A stretch of DNA of 64,000 nt from an uncultured Planctomycetota bacterium. Lineage in GTDB: Bacteria > Planctomycetota > Planctomycetia > Isosphaerales > Isosphaeraceae. Of this stretch, positions 14,098 through 22,584 are shown in pieces. Made by a program: the position numbers and the translations under genes. The first letter of the stretch is position 1. Each line of letters starts with the position of its first letter. The stretch lies in contig CAWGMQ010000010.1 of NCBI GenBank assembly GCA_963823665.1, forward strand, positions 544,001-608,000, read 5' to 3'. The notes beneath the pieces are model-generated. The model saw nothing but the letters and a program-made list of their open reading frames with translations, was not told the DNA's origin and ran no database searches.

Positions 14098-15837
14098 ATG
14101 TGGTCTTCTACTTTCGGTTCCATGTTCATAAATACAAGAACACGATTGACGTCCCTCACCGCGATCGCCCTGACGTTCGCGACGGTCCTCGCAACCGCCG
14201 GCGACGACGACCAGGCGAAAGACGTCGCCAAAACGGCCAATTCGAATGCCGGCTCCGCCAGGCAGACTGGAACACCGCCGTCACCGGCAACGCTCGGCGT
14301 GCTCCTGAACGACTCGCGTGCATGCCCCGGCTTTAACCTGATCAACCCCGGTCGCAAGCAGACCTACCTCTATGACAACGAAGGCCGCGTGGTTCATACG
14401 TGGAACAGTGACTATTCCAGCGGGGCGGCTGCTTATTTGCTCGAAAACGGTCACCTCTTCCGGCCCGCCGAGGCTCCCAATCGCAACCGGGCTTTCCAGG
14501 GCCCAGCCGCGAGCGGCCGTTTTCAAGAATTCGACTGGGATGGCAACCTCGTCTGGGATTTCGAGTACCACAGCGAAAAGCGAATGCCTCACCACGACGC
14601 GATCAAACTCCCGAATGGCAACGCGTTGCTCATCTGCTGGGAAATGATCGATGAGAAGGAAGCCGTCTCCAAGGGCCGCCGCCCGGAAACCGTGAAGAGC
14701 TCTCACCTCCAGCCCGATTGCCTGGTCGAGCTCAAGCCCACCGGCAAGCATTCCAGCGAAATCGTGTGGGAATGGCGAAGCTGGGATCACCTGATCCAGG
14801 ACCACGACAAAACCAAACCCGGTTTTGGCGAAGTCTCCGAACATCCCGAGCTGTTCGACCTGAACTACATGGGTGGCGAGGAAGACCCGGTCGCGAAAAC
14901 GAAAGCAAACACGAAAACGACGGCGACCAAGGATGATCCAAAGCAAGGCCAGGCTCCCGCCGTTCGCAAGAACCCCGACTGGATGCACGTCAACGCAGTG
15001 GCTTATAACGCCGACCTCGACCAGATCGCGCTCAGCAGTCCCAATTTCAGCGAGATCTGGATCATCGACCACAGCACCACCACGGCGGAAGCGAAGGGCC
15101 ACACCGGCGGGCGCGCCGGCAAAGGCGGCGATATCCTCTACCGCTGGGGCAACCCACGAGCCTACAAGAACGGTACGAGCAGCGATCGTCGCCTCTACTT
15201 CCAGCACAACATCCAGTGGATTGCCAAAGGGCTCCCAGGCACAGGCCACTTGCTCGTCTTCAATAACGGCGGCGGTCGCAAGCCCGAGGAATACTCCTCG
15301 GTCGACGAATTCGTTCCGCCCACCAACAACGACGGCCATTACATCCACCCGAAAGGCGCACCCTTCGGCCCCGCCGAGCCGCTCTGGAGCTACACCACTC
15401 CGAACAAGAAAGACTTCTTCTCATGGTTCATCTCCGGAGCCCAGCGCCTTTCGAACGGAAACACCCTGATCAACGCGGGCGCCTATGGCCTCGTATTTGA
15501 AGTGACTCCGGAAGGCGAAACCGTCTGGAAGTTCGCCAATCCGTTCAAGCCCGCCGGCGGTGGGCCGCCCAATGCGATTGCGGCACCAAAGCGGCCAGAC
15601 ACCGCCGCACAAAAAACGAAAGCGGCCGACACCAAGAAAGCTCAGCCTGCTCCAGGGCCACCGCCAGGGCGGCGGCGCCCACGCCGGCAAGGCAACATGC
15701 TCTTCCGCGCGACGCGATACGCTCTTGACCACTCCGCCTTCGCCGGTAAGACGCTCAAGCCCGGGCAGACACTCGGCGAGATCGAAGAGAATCCCGGCAA
15801 TTCCCTTCCCGCGACCAGTGCCGCGAAGGGTCGCTGA
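14098..15837 (+). CDS. Arylsulfotransferase (ASST)-like secreted beta-propeller protein
   Basis: GGAGG RBS; motifs HHDAIKLPNGN, DWMHVNAV, ILYRWGNP, FQHN and ISGAQRLSNGNTLI. Confidence 0.85.
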   Translation: MWSSTFGSMFINTRTRLTSLTAIALTFATVLATAGDDDQAKDVAKTANSNAGSARQTGTPPSPATLGVLLNDSRACPGFNLINPGRKQTYLYDNEGRVVHTWNSDYSSGAAAYLLENGHLFRPAEAPNRNRAFQGPAASGRFQEFDWDGNLVWDFEYHSEKRMPHHDAIKLPNGNALLICWEMIDEKEAVSKGRRPETVKSSHLQPDCLVELKPTGKHSSEIVWEWRSWDHLIQDHDKTKPGFGEVSEHPELFDLNYMGGEEDPVAKTKANTKTTATKDDPKQGQAPAVRKNPDWMHVNAVAYNADLDQIALSSPNFSEIWIIDHSTTTAEAKGHTGGRAGKGGDILYRWGNPRAYKNGTSSDRRLYFQHNIQWIAKGLPGTGHLLVFNNGGGRKPEEYSSVDEFVPPTNNDGHYIHPKGAPFGPAEPLWSYTTPNKKDFFSWFISGAQRLSNGNTLINAGAYGLVFEVTPEGETVWKFANPFKPAGGGPPNAIAAPKRPDTAAQKTKAADTKKAQPAPGPPPGRRRPRRQGNMLFRATRYALDHSAFAGKTLKPGQTLGEIEENPGNSLPATSAAKGR

Positions 15838-16640: not shown

Positions 16641-16745
16641 ACACGACAGCGATTCCCAGTCACTCTCTAACTCGAAATCTCGCGGTCCAGAAGGGTATCA
16701 TCAGGACATCAGCTCTCGCGCGTGCCCTGCCAAGAAAGCCCGCCA

Positions 16746-17683
16746 ATGATCGAACCCCCACCCACCTCCGTTGCCGCCGAGCTTCCGCACCTGGCAACGT
16801 TTGCGAGGGCCGCGGAGCAGGGAAGCTTCACCGCCGCCGCCAGCGCACTCGGCATCACTCAAGCCGCCGTCAGCCAGCGAATCGCCATCCTCGAAAAAGA
16901 AGTGCGGATTTCGCTCTTCAACCGCAGGGCAGGAAAAATCACTCTCACGGAAGCCGGCGAGCGGCTCTACCACTTCGCCCGGCAGATTCTTGACTTGCAC
17001 GAGCACGCGCGAACCTCCTTGAGCGGCGCGTACCCCGCCGTCTCCGGAGACCTGTCAATCGCGGCAAGCTCCGTGCCCGGCGAGTACTTCCTCCCCTCGT
17101 TGCTCTCCGCCTTTCACGCCGAGTATCCCGACGTGCATGTCCGGGCCACCGTCAGCGATAGCGGCCTCGTCCTGAAGGATATCGAAAAAGGCCGCGCGAC
17201 CCTCGGCCTGGTCGGACAGAAGACGGACAATCCCATCCTTGATTACCGCACCATCGCTTCGGATTCCCTCGTCCTGATCGTCTCCCCGGGGCATCCATCG
17301 CTCCGAAGAAAAACCATTTCGCCCGATGCTCTGAAAACCGAACGGCTAATCGTCCGCGAGCCCGGTTCGGGTTCCCGCTGCGCCCTGGAGCAAGGCCTCA
17401 CGCGAGCCGGCATGTCGCTCGCGGACCTGAATGTCGCCCTCGAGCTCGGCAGCAACGCCGCCATCAAGGATGCTGTGCAACGGGGCCTTGGAGTGGCGTT
17501 CCTCTCACAACTGGCAGTGCGAAAGAGCTCCTCTCGAGCGAGCTGCGAACCATCGCCGTCAAGGGCATCGACCTGAACCGCGATTTCTACCTCGTCTATA
17601 ACCGCCGCCGCCCGCTCCCACCCGCCGCGGCTGCATTCCTCCATTTCCTCGAGATGCATCCCATCGAGCCCGACAAGCAATGA
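16746..17683 (+). CDS. LysR-family regulator, CysL-like (selenium metabolism-associated type); frameshift at ~17523
   Basis: HTH GSFTAAASALGITQAAVSQRI; ASSVPGEYFLP; REPGSGSR; ELGSNAAIKDAV; C-terminus ELLSSELRTIAVKGIDLNRDFYLV...DKQ* in a shifted frame. Confidence 0.88.
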
Positions 17684-17694
17684 GGCCCGCCAGC

Positions 17695-17713
17695 CCATAA
17701 GCCCATCTTATGG
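17695..17713. promoter_or_regulatory. Putative LysR operator CCATAAG-N5-CTTATGG
   Basis: Perfect 7-bp inverted repeat containing T-N11-A (T17698...A17710), between the LysR stop and the next gene. Confidence 0.7.
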
Positions 17714-17886
17714 CAGGTCCAACGCATATCAGACCAAGCTCGGTGGTTCGATCGCCATGGACTGACGATCATAAACCTCGAGTCGCCTCTGGCGACGAAG
17801 TTCGTTCTTCGTCCCGCACGCCTGCTCGAAACCTGGCCCCCGCTCGAGCCGCTGTCCCGATTCGGGGCCGTTCCAAGGAGAAGTTC

Positions 17887-18444
17887 ATGCGATCACGATC
17901 GGTAAGGGGTATCTCGTCCGTGATGGTCTCCATCATCGTGGCGGGAACCACCCTCGCGGGAGACGCCGTCAAATCCGGCTTGAAGCCCGGTGAGCTGGTG
18001 AACCCGTTCAACGTTGAGGACATCACCGGCCCGAACAAGGGCACCACGCTCTGCTACCGCTGAAGTTACGGCTCCGCTCCTGTGGTCTGCGTGTTTGCCC
18101 GCAAGACCTCCGAGCCCTTGACCAGTTTGGTCAAGCAGATCGACAAGAAAATTGCCGAGAATTCGAGTCTCAAGAGCTTCGTCGTCATGATGGCCAAAGA
18201 CGGCGACAGCACCAAAGAAGCGCTCAAGAAGCTGGCCGAGGAGGCCGGCGTCAAGAACATTCCGCTGACGATGACCGGCGACAAGGACGGCCCGCCCGAC
18301 TACGAGATCTCCTCGGACGCCGACGTCACGGTCCTCATGTGGAACCAGGGCGCAGTCAAGTTCGGCCACGGCTACAAAGGTGAGCTGACCGAGAAAAACA
18401 TCGAGACGATCCTGTCCGATATACCAAAGCTTCTGGGCAAGTAA
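17887..18444 (+). CDS. Putative selenoprotein: exported thioredoxin/redoxin-like protein with CxxU (C56-Y-R-U59), 185 aa, read through TGA 18061-18063
   Basis: AAGGAG RBS; signal peptide; ORFs 17710-18063 and 18082-18444 are in the same frame; read-through gives TLCYR-U-SYGSAPVVCVFARK; SECIS-like hairpin follows. Confidence 0.82.
18070..18116 (+). promoter_or_regulatory. Bacterial SECIS-like stem-loop
   Basis: Outer stem GGCTC/GAGCC; inner stem GGTCTGCG/CGCA(A)GACC; apical loop TGTTTGCC begins 28 nt after the TGA, with G-U near its 5' side. Confidence 0.7.
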
Positions 18445-18519: not shown

Positions 18520-18558
18520 GCCACGACCCGGGCATCTCGCCCGGGTCGTGGCATTTCG
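18520..18558 (+). terminator. Probable intrinsic terminator after the selenoprotein gene
   Basis: Perfect 14-bp stem GCCACGACCCGGGC/GCCCGGGTCGTGGC with a 5-nt loop and a short ATTT tail. Confidence 0.6.
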
Positions 18559-19249: not shown

Positions 19250-19315
19250 TCGAGTCGGTCAGTCGCGAGATTGTTGTCCGCCCACTGCCCGAACCATCAA
19301 GATAGGAGCATGCCA

Positions 19316-20263
19316 ATGCCTCGACTTTCCTTGCCCTGTGCTCGTCGCGCATTTACATTGATCGAGCTTCTTGTAGTGATTGCGATCATCGCCGTCTTGA
19401 TCGCCCTGCTGTTGCCCGCCGTGCAGGCGGCCCGTGAATCGGCCCGAAGAGCCCAGTGCCTGAACAATTTGAAACAGATCGGGCTGGCGCTGCATAATTA
19501 CCACAGCACGTACGACACATTCCCGCCCGGATATATCTCGGTCACACGGGGTAACCAGCCGACCGGCCAGGATATCGGCCCAGGATGGGGTTGGGGTGCG
19601 ATGATCCTCGGCAATCTTGAGCAAACGTCGATCGCCAATTCCCTGAATTTCAGCCTGTTGACGTCTGCTCCCGGCTCACAAACCGTTCGCCAGACCAGCT
19701 TGTCGGTGTTTCTCTGCCCCAGCAACTCGGGTGGCACCGGCCCCCTCTCGATCAAGGACAGTTCGGGCAACATCCTGGTCGGCGATCTGGCGCCCGGTCA
19801 GTACATCGGCGTCGCCGGCCAGTGGGAGCCCGAGGAATTCCCCGCGCCCAATAACGGTGTCTTCTACCGCAACAGCAGGATCGGCCTGCGCGAGATCACC
19901 GACGGCTCGAGTACCACCCTCATGGCCGGCGAGCGGTCGCAAAACGTCGCCAATGCGACCTGGAGCGGCATGATCCCCTTCGGCCAGGCCTGCAATAACC
20001 CCAACTGGCCCGTCCAGGATTGCGAGGCGTCCAACGTCCTGATTCTCGGCCACACCGGGCCCTCGCCAGATGAGCCCTGGATCGACGTGCCCAACTACCA
20101 GAAGGCAGGCGCCGATGATTTCCACAGCCTGCACTCGGGCGGCTGCAACTTCCTCTTCGGCGATGGTTCCATCCGGTTCGTCAAGGAGACGATCAATCCC
20201 CAGGTCTTCAGCTATCTCTCGACGCGAGCCGGCGCCGAGCTCGTCAGCTCCGATCAGTTCTGA
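19316..20263 (+). CDS. DUF1559 protein with prepilin-type N-terminal cleavage/methylation motif and H-X9-DG C-terminus
   Basis: [65 protein letters not shown]. Confidence 0.95.
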
Positions 20264-20515: not shown

Positions 20516-21070
20516 ATGATGACTGCCGCTATTGCACTCCGGAATGTCACCAAGAGCGTCAGGAACTTGGTCGCGGTCGAGAAGCTCGAACTCACGGTGC
20601 CGCTGGGCTCCCTCCACGGCTTCATCGGGCCCAACGGCTCGGGCAAGACAACGACCTTGCGCATGATCATGCACATCCTCCTGCCCGATGAGGGCGAAAT
20701 CGAGGTGCTCGGCCAGCGCGGCACGCGAGCCGCGCGCGATTGCATCAGCTATCTTCCCGAAGAGCGCGGGCTCTACAAGCGCATGTCGGTGCGCAGGCTT
20801 CTTCGCTACTACGGTGCACTCAAAGGCGCGGTTCAGCCTCAGCTCGATCGCTCGATTGCCGAGTGGCTCGAGCGCCTCGGGCTTTCCGCGTCGCTCGATC
20901 GCAAGATCGACAGCCTGTCCAAAGGCATGGCTCAAAAGGTCCAATTCATCGCCGCGGTCCTCAACCAGCCGCGGCTCTTGATCCTCGACGAGCCGTTCTC
21001 GGGCCTCGACCCCGTCAACGCCGAAGTGCTCAGGGACGCCGTCCTCGATCTCAAGCGATCGGAGACATCA
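20516..21070 (+). pseudogene. ABC transporter ATP-binding subunit, truncated at the 3' end
   Basis: Walker A GPNGSGKTT, signature LSKGM and Walker B LLILDEPF present; H-loop absent; frame runs into the antisense strand of pfk. Confidence 0.78.
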
Positions 21071-22387
21071 ATCGTGCGGATAATTCTCCAGCGACCGCGC
21101 CAGCCGCTGAAAATCCGACCCCGGCTGAATCAGCCGGATGTAAGTCAAGAGCGTCGCCGGCTCGATCAGCGTATCAAACGGGACATAATTCAAATTGAGC
21201 TGGCCCGAGACCGACACCAGCACGCCGTCACAGTGGTTCTCGACCAGCGCGCGATACGCTCCCACCCCGAGCTGGCTCCCCAGGATCACATCAAACGCAT
21301 GGGGCAGTGCGCATCGCGCCTCATAACCGAGCTGCAATCCGGTGACCCGCCGTTTCTTGCCCTGGCGCCGGGCGTACTCAGCTTCAACCAGCTTGGTCAT
21401 GTTTCGGGCAAGCTCGGTCTGCGACAGCGAGATATTCCCGTGGTCGTCAAACGTCACCCCTTCGAGATACTTGGCCGGCATGAACTGGGCGAGCCCCTCC
21501 GCCAGCACGATCACGCCGAATTCCTTGCCGTCCTTCTCGCGGGCGATCATCACGTCGACGATCATGCCGACAATCGCGTCCAGGTTCATGATCCGCCGCG
21601 TGCTCGACGCCTGGGTCTTGGGATCAGTGACCGTTTCCGTGGTCTCAAAGTCGCCGACTAAGTCTTCGACCGAAAGCACCAGGCTGGCCTCGCCGGCAAT
21701 CGCTGCGCCGTAAGCGAGCCAGCCAGCGCTTCGCCCCATGGTTTCGACCAGGAAGAACATGCGGCCGGCCTCCGCGTCCGCAAGCAGATTGCGGATCTCG
21801 CTCGCCAGCGTCTCGACCGCGGTGAAATACCCGAACGTGAAGTCGATCCCTCGGTAATCGTTGTCGATCGTCTTGGGCACATGCACCACCGCGATCCGTC
21901 GTTCATTCGGCGGCAGAAACTCCTGAAAACGCTTGAATTTGTTAGCCGATTTGAGGGTGTCATCACCCCCGATCGAGATGAGCGCGTCGACATCCAGCGA
22001 CGCAAGCGCGCGATGCACCTTGCGAAGCTGCGCAGTCCGTTCGGGGTCGGCCAGGTGTGCCGGCTCGGTGACGTCCTTGCCGGGATTGGCGCGCGACGTG
22101 CCGATCAGAATGCCGCGCGTGTTGCGAGTGCGTTTGAGGTTGGTCTGGTCCAGGACGACGTAGTCTTCGCCTTCCCGCATCGGACGGTCGTCGCCGAATT
22201 CGATCAGGTGAGCGTACCCATGCAAAATGCCCAGCACCCCGATTCCATGCCGCCGGAACGAGGCCGCCGCCGTGGAAATGACCGCATTCGCCGCCGGCGC
22301 CGGCCCCCCCGCAAACAGGATCGCCACCCGACCGATCGAGCCGGGAACGCGCGACGAAGTCGACGGAGCGTGTTCTGATAAGCTCAT
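21068..22387 (-). CDS. pfp: 6-phosphofructokinase, probably pyrophosphate-dependent
   Basis: GGPAPAAN, GTSR, GGDDT, PKTIDND, ETMGR and LGYEAR; GGDD plus the Lys of PKTIDND is the PPi-type signature. Confidence 0.88.
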   Translation of the reverse strand: MSLSEHAPSTSSRVPGSIGRVAILFAGGPAPAANAVISTAAASFRRHGIGVLGILHGYAHLIEFGDDRPMREGEDYVVLDQTNLKRTRNTRGILIGTSRANPGKDVTEPAHLADPERTAQLRKVHRALASLDVDALISIGGDDTLKSANKFKRFQEFLPPNERRIAVVHVPKTIDNDYRGIDFTFGYFTAVETLASEIRNLLADAEAGRMFFLVETMGRSAGWLAYGAAIAGEASLVLSVEDLVGDFETTETVTDPKTQASSTRRIMNLDAIVGMIVDVMIAREKDGKEFGVIVLAEGLAQFMPAKYLEGVTFDDHGNISLSQTELARNMTKLVEAEYARRQGKKRRVTGLQLGYEARCALPHAFDVILGSQLGVGAYRALVENHCDGVLVSVSGQLNLNYVPFDTLIEPATLLTYIRLIQPGSDFQRLARSLENYPHD

Positions 22388-22584
22388 GACTGTCTCCAAA
22401 CCGTTCGGACTTTTATTGACTGAACCAATTCATTCAGACATTAACCGCGATTGGAGATCGGGACAATGTTTCTTCAGCGCCAGTGTCCCCAGAGTCGCCT
22501 TTCGCTCCGCGAAAGTGCGTTCTTCCCTTGGCGGATTGCGCGGCGCCAATGCCGGCAATTTGCTCGATCGCGCATTTCCCGCGC

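Follow-up and report, generated by a model that had tools for sequence, protein, structure and literature searches.

A probable exported selenoprotein family of Planctomycetota with a displaced Cys/Sec pair on a redoxin fold and a proposed two-hairpin, long-distance SECIS

The window analysed here is the whole 64,000-nt stretch of DNA from an uncultured member of the Isosphaeraceae (Planctomycetota; GenBank assembly GCA_963823665.1, contig CAWGMQ010000010.1, positions 544,001 to 608,000 of the forward strand). The frame at positions 17887–18444 of the window contains a single in-frame TGA at 18061–18063, codon 59, and the ORF listing cuts the gene into 17710–18063 and 18082–18444. As an earlier note on this DNA had proposed, both halves lie in one frame, and read-through yields a protein of 185 amino acids. 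The mapped parts of the locus are as follows:

17887–18444, + strand: gene inferred to encode an exported redoxin-fold selenoprotein of an uncatalogued family, 185 aa, from the read-through frame, fold and homologues
17876–17880, + strand: ribosome-binding site AGGAG, 6 nt 5′ of the ATG, from the sequence
17887–17958, + strand: probable signal peptide, residues 1–24, with the T-L-A cleavage site placed by eye
18052–18063, + strand: C56-Y-R-U59 motif at the start of a short helix (57–61) ahead of strand β1, from conservation, DSSP and profile alignment
18061–18063, + strand: in-frame UGA, inferred selenocysteine (Sec) codon, from the TGA/Cys alignment of 173 distinct genes
18076–18115, + strand: hairpin 1, the core of the stem-loop described in the earlier note; a selected structure and proposed spacer
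18117–18135, + strand: hairpin 2, proposed SelB-binding SECIS with a 7-bp stem and the loop A-G-U-U-U at 18124–18128
18520–18552, + strand: perfect 14-bp inverted repeat 3′ of the stop codon, a possible transcript end, read from the sequence

The gene product opens with a basic stretch followed by a hydrophobic one, and a hydrophobic 10-mer is present in 110 of the 112 aligned members with an N terminus of sufficient length. These features, the AGGAG sequence and the C-Y-R-U motif followed by VVCVFAR are as previously described, the signal peptide being a prediction. The inverted repeat behind the gene is missing from the terminator scan, which requires a T run. A 151-nt contig of the public DNA run X1 spans 18027–18177 with 0 differences, but is not independent confirmation because X1 may be the source sample; contigs from RNA runs of relatives also span the gene, mostly at 85–95% likeness, and are no measure of expression. 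Neighbouring genes in the window encode an arylsulfotransferase-like protein (14098–15837), a DUF1559 prepilin-type protein (19271–20263) and a phosphofructokinase (21068–22399), with no evident link to the gene. Just upstream lies a LysR regulator (16722–17576, + strand) whose best NCBIfam match is NF040786, selenium metabolism-associated LysR, at 231.8 bits, below the cut-off of 250; its frame appears to end early, possibly through a frameshift, and LysR-overlapping ORF clusters adjoin the family gene at 6 of 170 loci.

Homologues of the read-through protein define a family in which codon 59 alternates between TGA and Cys codons. An HMM search of the collected loci returned 200 domain hits, and dropping 9 without a locatable motif and removing duplicates left 173 distinct genes. 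The equivalent of codon 59 is TGA in 111 of these, TGC in 54 and TGT in 8, and none of the 173 genes with a located motif carries TAA or TAG there. This is the mixture of TGA and Cys (62 genes) that the earlier note had predicted for position 59. UGA59 aligns with a near-invariant Cys, conservation extends on both sides of the codon, and the same codon is TGA in family members down to about 25% identity. Protein database searching gave 608 matches, and among the best 120 of these, 12 are full-length proteins with C-Y-R-C and 108 are C-terminal halves of 117–126 aa; the close relatives that bear names are Isosphaeraceae or other Planctomycetota. Existing family models do not describe these proteins. 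Pfam has no match for the query, and a single one of 116 members weakly matches AhpC-TSA (E 0.004). NCBIfam release 20.0 gave no relevant match, whether for the query (E ≤ 1) or the 116 members (E ≤ 0.01) (NF041199, NF045827, NF041383 and NF047660 were not matched), and a sequence search of the PDB found no matching family. Across the 116 members, model searches give only weak matches of single members, and in the ESM Atlas the Cys paralogue of this genome falls with unnamed Planctomycetota clusters at 0.98, compared with only 0.86–0.87 for YtfJ/Redoxin clusters.

The predicted structure places the protein on a thioredoxin fold, as the earlier note had anticipated. AlphaFold2 run on the 116-sequence alignment gave a pLDDT of 91, with low values over the first 20–25 residues, and a structure search returned FetE (Z 17.1, r.m.s.d. 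2.3, 137 residues aligned) and DsbE (Z 17.0) as top matches, with further matches to ResA and BCP/Tpx peroxiredoxins. The model has the thioredoxin fold with an N-terminal hairpin and an inserted helix-strand, and hhalign gives a probability of 93.9% (E 1.6e-7). TlpA/ResA/DsbE/FetE proteins (PDB 8t4c, 3gl3 and 2f9s) and BCP/Tpx thus share its fold at Z 15–17 and r.m.s.d. 2.2–2.6, and probably its export. By contrast, identity to these proteins is 9–19%, ARKTSEPL stands in place of WCxxC and Val occupies the cis-Pro position.

The motif itself lies at an unusual place on this fold. The predicted elements run helix 57–61, strand 66–71 and helix 76–91, and CxxU therefore precedes strand β1. Profile alignment to 21 ordinary redoxins encoded in this genome puts their WCxxC on ARKTSEPL and CxxU in the segment ahead of the G-K-x-V-V strand entry. 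CxxU, which the earlier note had called a typical thiol/selenol redox motif, is thus away from the usual active-site position of thioredoxins. Cys56 is conserved in 112 and Cys59 in 109 of the 116 aligned proteins, and only 4 of the 116 have a Cys at the usual CxxC site (residues 71–82). At position 147, the usual place of the cis-Pro loop proline, 84 members have Val, and Pro is outside the five commonest residues. We found neither a CxxC/UxxC directly after β1 at the start of helix α1 with a cis-Pro loop nor a peroxiredoxin PxxxTxxU/C motif after β1. As both the CxxC site and the cis-Pro are absent, the motif differs from the standard active site of thioredoxins, and on sequence conservation Cys56/Sec59 is the only conserved redox pair of the family. 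The geometry of a helix N terminus activates CxxC motifs, and in the model CxxU caps the N terminus of a helix, where it may be activated in a similar way. The modelled fold is TlpA/ResA/peroxiredoxin-like, and the family can at best be called a thioredoxin-fold redox protein outside the TlpA/AhpC-TSA families.

What the relocated pair does is, on balance, best predicted as thiol/selenol redox chemistry in the periplasm. The exported product would cycle Cys56/Sec59 between a selenol-thiol and a selenenylsulfide state, and would serve as a relay or reductant that possibly links a DsbD-type donor to a partner of the haem/peroxidase kind. A gene for a β-propeller/di-haem peroxidase lies near the family gene at 15 of 170 loci and a DsbD_N gene at 8 of 170, mostly beside Cys forms (12 of 15 and 8 of 8), the Pfam check of these redox neighbours covering the representatives in L226 only. 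No redox neighbours surround the gene described here, and the neighbourhoods of family genes are mostly unconserved. In one cluster, L226:353–4464, a Cys copy and a Sec copy stand together with genes for a DsbD_N protein and a β-propeller/di-haem cytochrome c peroxidase; tandem family copies also occur in L046, L162 and L163.

A different function for the same selenoprotein is possible but doubtful, namely that Cys56/Sec59 binds metal or forms a structural selenenylsulfide, with the redoxin scaffold catalytically dead and acting as a chaperone, adaptor or sensor. Roles of still other kinds are less likely. A metal-binding or structural role would leave the recoding model described below untouched, since only the function differs. 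It would account for the loss of the canonical CxxC and cis-Pro positions, for tandem-domain homologues with one Cys or none, and for the lack of a conserved operon around most TGA forms. Against it, Sec has been kept together with a costly two-hairpin signal in distant lineages, the motif is still at a helix N terminus, redox neighbours do occur at some loci, and most known CxxU/UxxC selenoproteins are thought to be redox-active (PMC13188914). In some homologues and fusions of tandem domains, one or both of the Cys residues are missing; P0128, P0144, P0145, P0203 and P0194 include tandem homologues of two to three domains, several of them without the Cys pair, and one of these five proteins is fused to a thioredoxin/AhpC-TSA domain.

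The RNA downstream of UGA59 folds into two consecutive hairpins. The earlier note had read a stem-loop at 18070–18116 as the SECIS, and its fold and loop distance stand: hairpin 1 folds at −15.4 kcal/mol, its apical loop UGUUUGCC begins 28 nt after the UGA with G at loop position 2, and loop and spacing formally agree with the canonical rule. In this gene alone, hairpin 1 is no better than shuffled sequence (z −0.59, with 52 of 200 shuffles folding equally well) and no stronger than synonymous recodings in the +13 to +54 window (z −0.1). Across the family it is under selection in TGA genes, where its energy is −18.1 against −11.7 after synonymous recoding (median z −1.9); in Cys forms the values are −9.9 and −8.4, with no such excess. 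Covariation supports the structure, with 77.9% of cells paired and double changes at 7 of 11 pairs, and its register varies between clades. The SECIS role proposed for hairpin 1 is not supported. A lenient test for a SECIS at canonical distance is passed by 33 of the 111 TGA genes and by 22 of the 62 Cys genes, and therefore shows no enrichment. The loop G rule obeyed by this gene holds in only 11 of 110 TGA genes, and the Cys paralogue of this genome retains the upper stem.

It is hairpin 2 that tracks the UGA. Folding of the 105 nt past the UGA revealed this second hairpin directly behind the first, at −9.2 kcal/mol in this gene, with a loop that begins 60 nt after the UGA (58–69 nt across the family). 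Defined as an N-G-[G/U]-N-N loop closed by 5 bp or more at this far distance from the UGA, it occurs in 110 of the 111 TGA genes and in 1 of the 62 Cys genes, against a background of 21 in 3,195 arbitrary window positions. These counts overstate independence because one taxonomic family dominates the TGA genes, and in the tree Sec and Cys have replaced each other independently only a few times, with weak support for some of these events. The energy of hairpin 2 is −10.2 in TGA genes compared with −4.2 in synonymous recodings, and neither Cys genes nor control windows show any excess over recodings. In a covariation alignment of 53 of the 111 TGA genes, picked for diversity and absence of indels, 99.5% of cells are paired, double changes occur at 5 of 8 pairs, and sliding the partners cuts pairing to at most 48.3%. 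On four of five covariation measures, 0 of 500 shuffles reach the observed value; on the remaining measure, the alignment is not better than shuffles (249 of 500). Codon choice bears the same imprint. Of the 111 TGA genes, 93 have AGT and 11 have GGT as the loop codon; in the rest of these genes AGT accounts for 5% of the Ser codons. The Leu of the stem is encoded by TTG in 100 of 111, compared with 11% elsewhere. Where one to three residues are inserted after Sec, hairpin 2 shifts to 63–69 nt. Its stem length, N-G-[G/U]-N-N loop pattern and energy fit the bSECISearch model, but its distance of 60 nt from the UGA in this gene lies outside the canonical range. An RNAalifold run on a mixed alignment of 42 sequences by 66 columns, which ends before the 3′ arm of hairpin 2, gave no consensus structure, and a search of Rfam gave chance-level matches only.

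A covariance model of the element finds only this gene, the Cys paralogue and one chance match in this genome. Among 11 further matches examined across 41 genomes, 8 are new TGA members of the family with hairpin 2 at 60 or 69 nt, tracking insertions in the protein, and the other 3 are a frameshifted Cys form and 2 unrelated sequences. This model thus gives no instance of the layout in other gene families. A chance look-alike of hairpin 2 occurs in an unrelated gene, L267, which resembles and by our reading alone is presumably gatB.

Cys forms nested in TGA clades, including the paralogue of this genome, have lost the loop signature, and the same difference separates the TGA copy in L226 from its tandem TGC copy. 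That paralogue (L033, C11:1000356–1000907) is 61% identical to the protein described here and lies among TGA forms in the tree; it retains most of both stems with a change of the hairpin 2 loop from A-G-U to A-G-C, and is likely a Sec-to-Cys reversion with a remnant SECIS. The single Cys form with a perfect hairpin 2 is a TGT gene (L222:2178–2258, + strand). It is either a recent reversion or, possibly, a gene in which Sec is encoded by a Cys codon, as mentioned for some bacteria in PMC8124441. The sole TGA gene without hairpin 2 is a distant member with the motif C-P-V-U (L062:1585–1665, − strand), which has a SECIS hairpin at canonical distance instead, and suggests that far and canonical layouts can replace each other.

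The arrangement of the two hairpins offers a way for the distant element to act on the UGA. In an estimate that forces the first 10 nt to stay unpaired, hairpin 1 starts a median of 13 nt after the UGA, and a median of 1 nt separates its end from hairpin 2. The effective spacer from the UGA to hairpin 2 has a median of 13 nt (5–95% range 11–20; 110 genes), and the effective distance from UGA to loop with hairpin 1 folded has a median of 21 nt, within 16–37. Five other probable selenoprotein genes of this genome, all unannotated, have canonical SECIS elements with 7–8-bp stems and the same loop type, and these stems start 11–18 nt after the UGA. They encode FdhA, an FwdB-like molybdopterin subunit and three U-P-x-C redoxins, and lie at C5:531591 (L126), C10:1189390- (L134), C6:1670717 (L094), C4:2630214- (L115) and C4:2823527 (L132). 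Searches of the genome with PF13899 and PF00085 gave no TGA-interrupted matches, and a redoxin match with a TGA on C3 was set aside, its TGA codon not being at a Cys position and the case looking like a frameshift. In the mechanism that we propose, SelB would bind hairpin 2, with its loop 60 nt past the UGA. Hairpin 1, which starts 12 nt after the UGA in this gene and ends 1 nt before hairpin 2, would fold out about 40 nt and so leave the SelB-binding stem some 13 unpaired nt from the UGA, as in the ordinary selenoprotein genes of the genome. We speculate that the SECIS loop may have been placed in the more tolerant helix α1, away from β1, because the codons after Sec encode that conserved strand. 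A further idea, that hairpin 2 is the inherited SECIS of an ancestral UxxC site (both would lie in helix α1), was not adopted because the register is 2–3 codons off that of the UxxC redoxins of this genome.

The two hairpins could also be read the other way round, with hairpin 1 binding SelB as an ordinary SECIS and hairpin 2 having some other role, for example pausing the ribosome, stabilising the mRNA or enhancing read-through. Hairpin 1 does stand at canonical distance, has its loop G at position 2 in this gene and is stabler than recodings in TGA and not in Cys forms, but the canonical test does not tell TGA genes from Cys genes and the SelB-type loop is on hairpin 2, which makes this assignment unlikely. 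We consider it likely that hairpin 2 is the SelB site and hairpin 1 the spacer.

The genome encodes the machinery to decode UGA59, with selA (503.6 bits), selB (364.1 bits) and selD (381.1 bits) all above cut-off, a SelD of the Cys form and a tRNA-Sec with a UCA anticodon. These are the Sec genes that the earlier note had proposed to look for. Across a phylum sample, 35 of 301 genomes have a match to the family. In 36 genomes picked by the analyst, with selA as the only marker, selA accompanies a TGA-interrupted match in 14 of 14 other genomes, and where selA is missing but a homologue is present (14 genomes), all matches are uninterrupted. Within the taxonomic family to which this genome belongs (121 genomes, a list put together by hand from tables), selA occurs in 54 of 61 genomes with a TGA form, and the remaining 7 are 69–83% complete; every checked genome that is at least 85% complete and has a TGA form has selA. 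Kin are not independent in these comparisons, yet there is no exception among well-assembled genomes. We have little doubt, from the alignments and the gene content, that UGA59 would be decoded as Sec by the SelA, SelB, SelD and tRNA-Sec of this genome. A true stop (in a pseudogene, two small genes or a sequencing error) or a UGA read as Trp or Cys without selenium fits the split by gene callers, the 108 C-terminal halves among the best 120 protein matches, the intact Cys paralogue and the frameshift errors in some relatives, but is very improbable given TGA at the same codon in 111 genes with TAA/TAG in none of 173, two conserved halves that fit one domain, and selA beside the TGA form in all checked genomes at least 85% complete. 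On the sequencing-error variant, the earlier note had remarked that the errors elsewhere in the window are indels and not stop-codon substitutions; the public contig over 18027–18177 is identical, and TGA is present in 111 of 173 homologous genes. This mis-annotated gene almost certainly encodes a genuine selenoprotein, one whose family is uncatalogued, and the machinery, fold and homologues support the original proposal of an exported, redoxin-like selenoprotein from an unannotated planctomycete family. Taken whole, the likely explanation is a single Sec gene with hairpin 2 as its SECIS, hairpin 1 as spacer and a relocated redox pair.

Spatial rather than linear proximity of a SECIS to its UGA has an engineered counterpart. 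Su, Li and Gladyshev (2005) reportedly obtained some Sec insertion in E. coli from a 3′-UTR SECIS held near the UGA by base pairing. That arrangement was artificial; the one described here is natural, lies inside the coding region and is conserved across a phylum. Hairpin 2 resembles the FdhA, FwdB-like and redoxin SECIS elements of this genome in loop type, and the canonical bacterial SECIS of the E. coli fdhF type in stem length, loop pattern and energy. It differs in having its loop 58–69 nt after the UGA and behind a second conserved hairpin, compared with a loop 16–37 nt after the UGA in bacterial SECIS elements according to PMC13188914 and PMC10778597.

The protein shares with the thioredoxin-fold selenoproteins in Table 1 of PMC13188914 a thioredoxin-superfamily fold, the pairing of Sec with Cys, Cys homologues elsewhere and the splitting by gene callers. 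These relatives are a Prx-like thiol:disulfide oxidoreductase (PF00578, UxxC), the Redoxin family (PF08534, UxxC), a peroxiredoxin (TxxU), a Trx7/PDZ protein (NF041199, CxxU) and Prx-SUH (NF045827, CxxU). CxxU stands before β1 in our family, whereas the motifs of those families follow β1. No entry of the table has C-Y-x-U on this scaffold, a comparison made by domain model and motif only because the table gives no sequences. None of the 119 families in the accessible part of PMC13188914 matches by model or motif, and the accessible part of PMC12013277 adds no matching family. The P1 'hypothetical' selenoprotein candidate of Kim et al. 2016 (S9 Table of PMC4807772) is likewise a planctomycete gene split at UGA with a planctomycete Cys homologue as its closest match (Rhodopirellula sallentina), the two being compared by description only; P1 was scored with the default bSECISearch SECIS. 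BSepDB reports canonical elements in 87.4% of its entries and leaves the rest unexplained (PMC13326102), and the species list of its supplement, as far as searched, contains none of three motif strings. We found no natural distant bacterial SECIS in the available passages of PMC10778597, PMC8659212, PMC1794560, PMC8124441 and bioRxiv 10.1101/2022.07.06.499078, and no matching passage in PMC1802603. Neither this family nor a natural bacterial SECIS built of two hairpins came up in the literature searched on planctomycete selenoproteins and SECIS spacing; Haft and Tolstoy 2025 or Su et al. 2005 may bear on novelty.

The family owes its interest to two features, a SECIS that would act over a long distance by means of two hairpins and a Cys/Sec pair at a new site. 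It is fairly probable that together they represent a natural bacterial design, with about 40 coding nt folded out by a spacer hairpin to let a SECIS 60–69 nt downstream serve the UGA, in an exported family whose Cys/Sec centre has moved on the redoxin fold to a position unused by the redoxins aligned to it. The family is mis-split in most databases, as the 108 half-proteins among the best 120 matches illustrate. If the proposed mechanism is true, the codons after Sec are freed from SECIS constraints, which has a bearing on the production of recombinant selenoproteins without rewriting the residues after Sec. If the layout is general, it would explain part of the bacterial selenoprotein genes without a canonical SECIS, and as a natural case of another layout the family is compact, well controlled and testable with a few point mutants.
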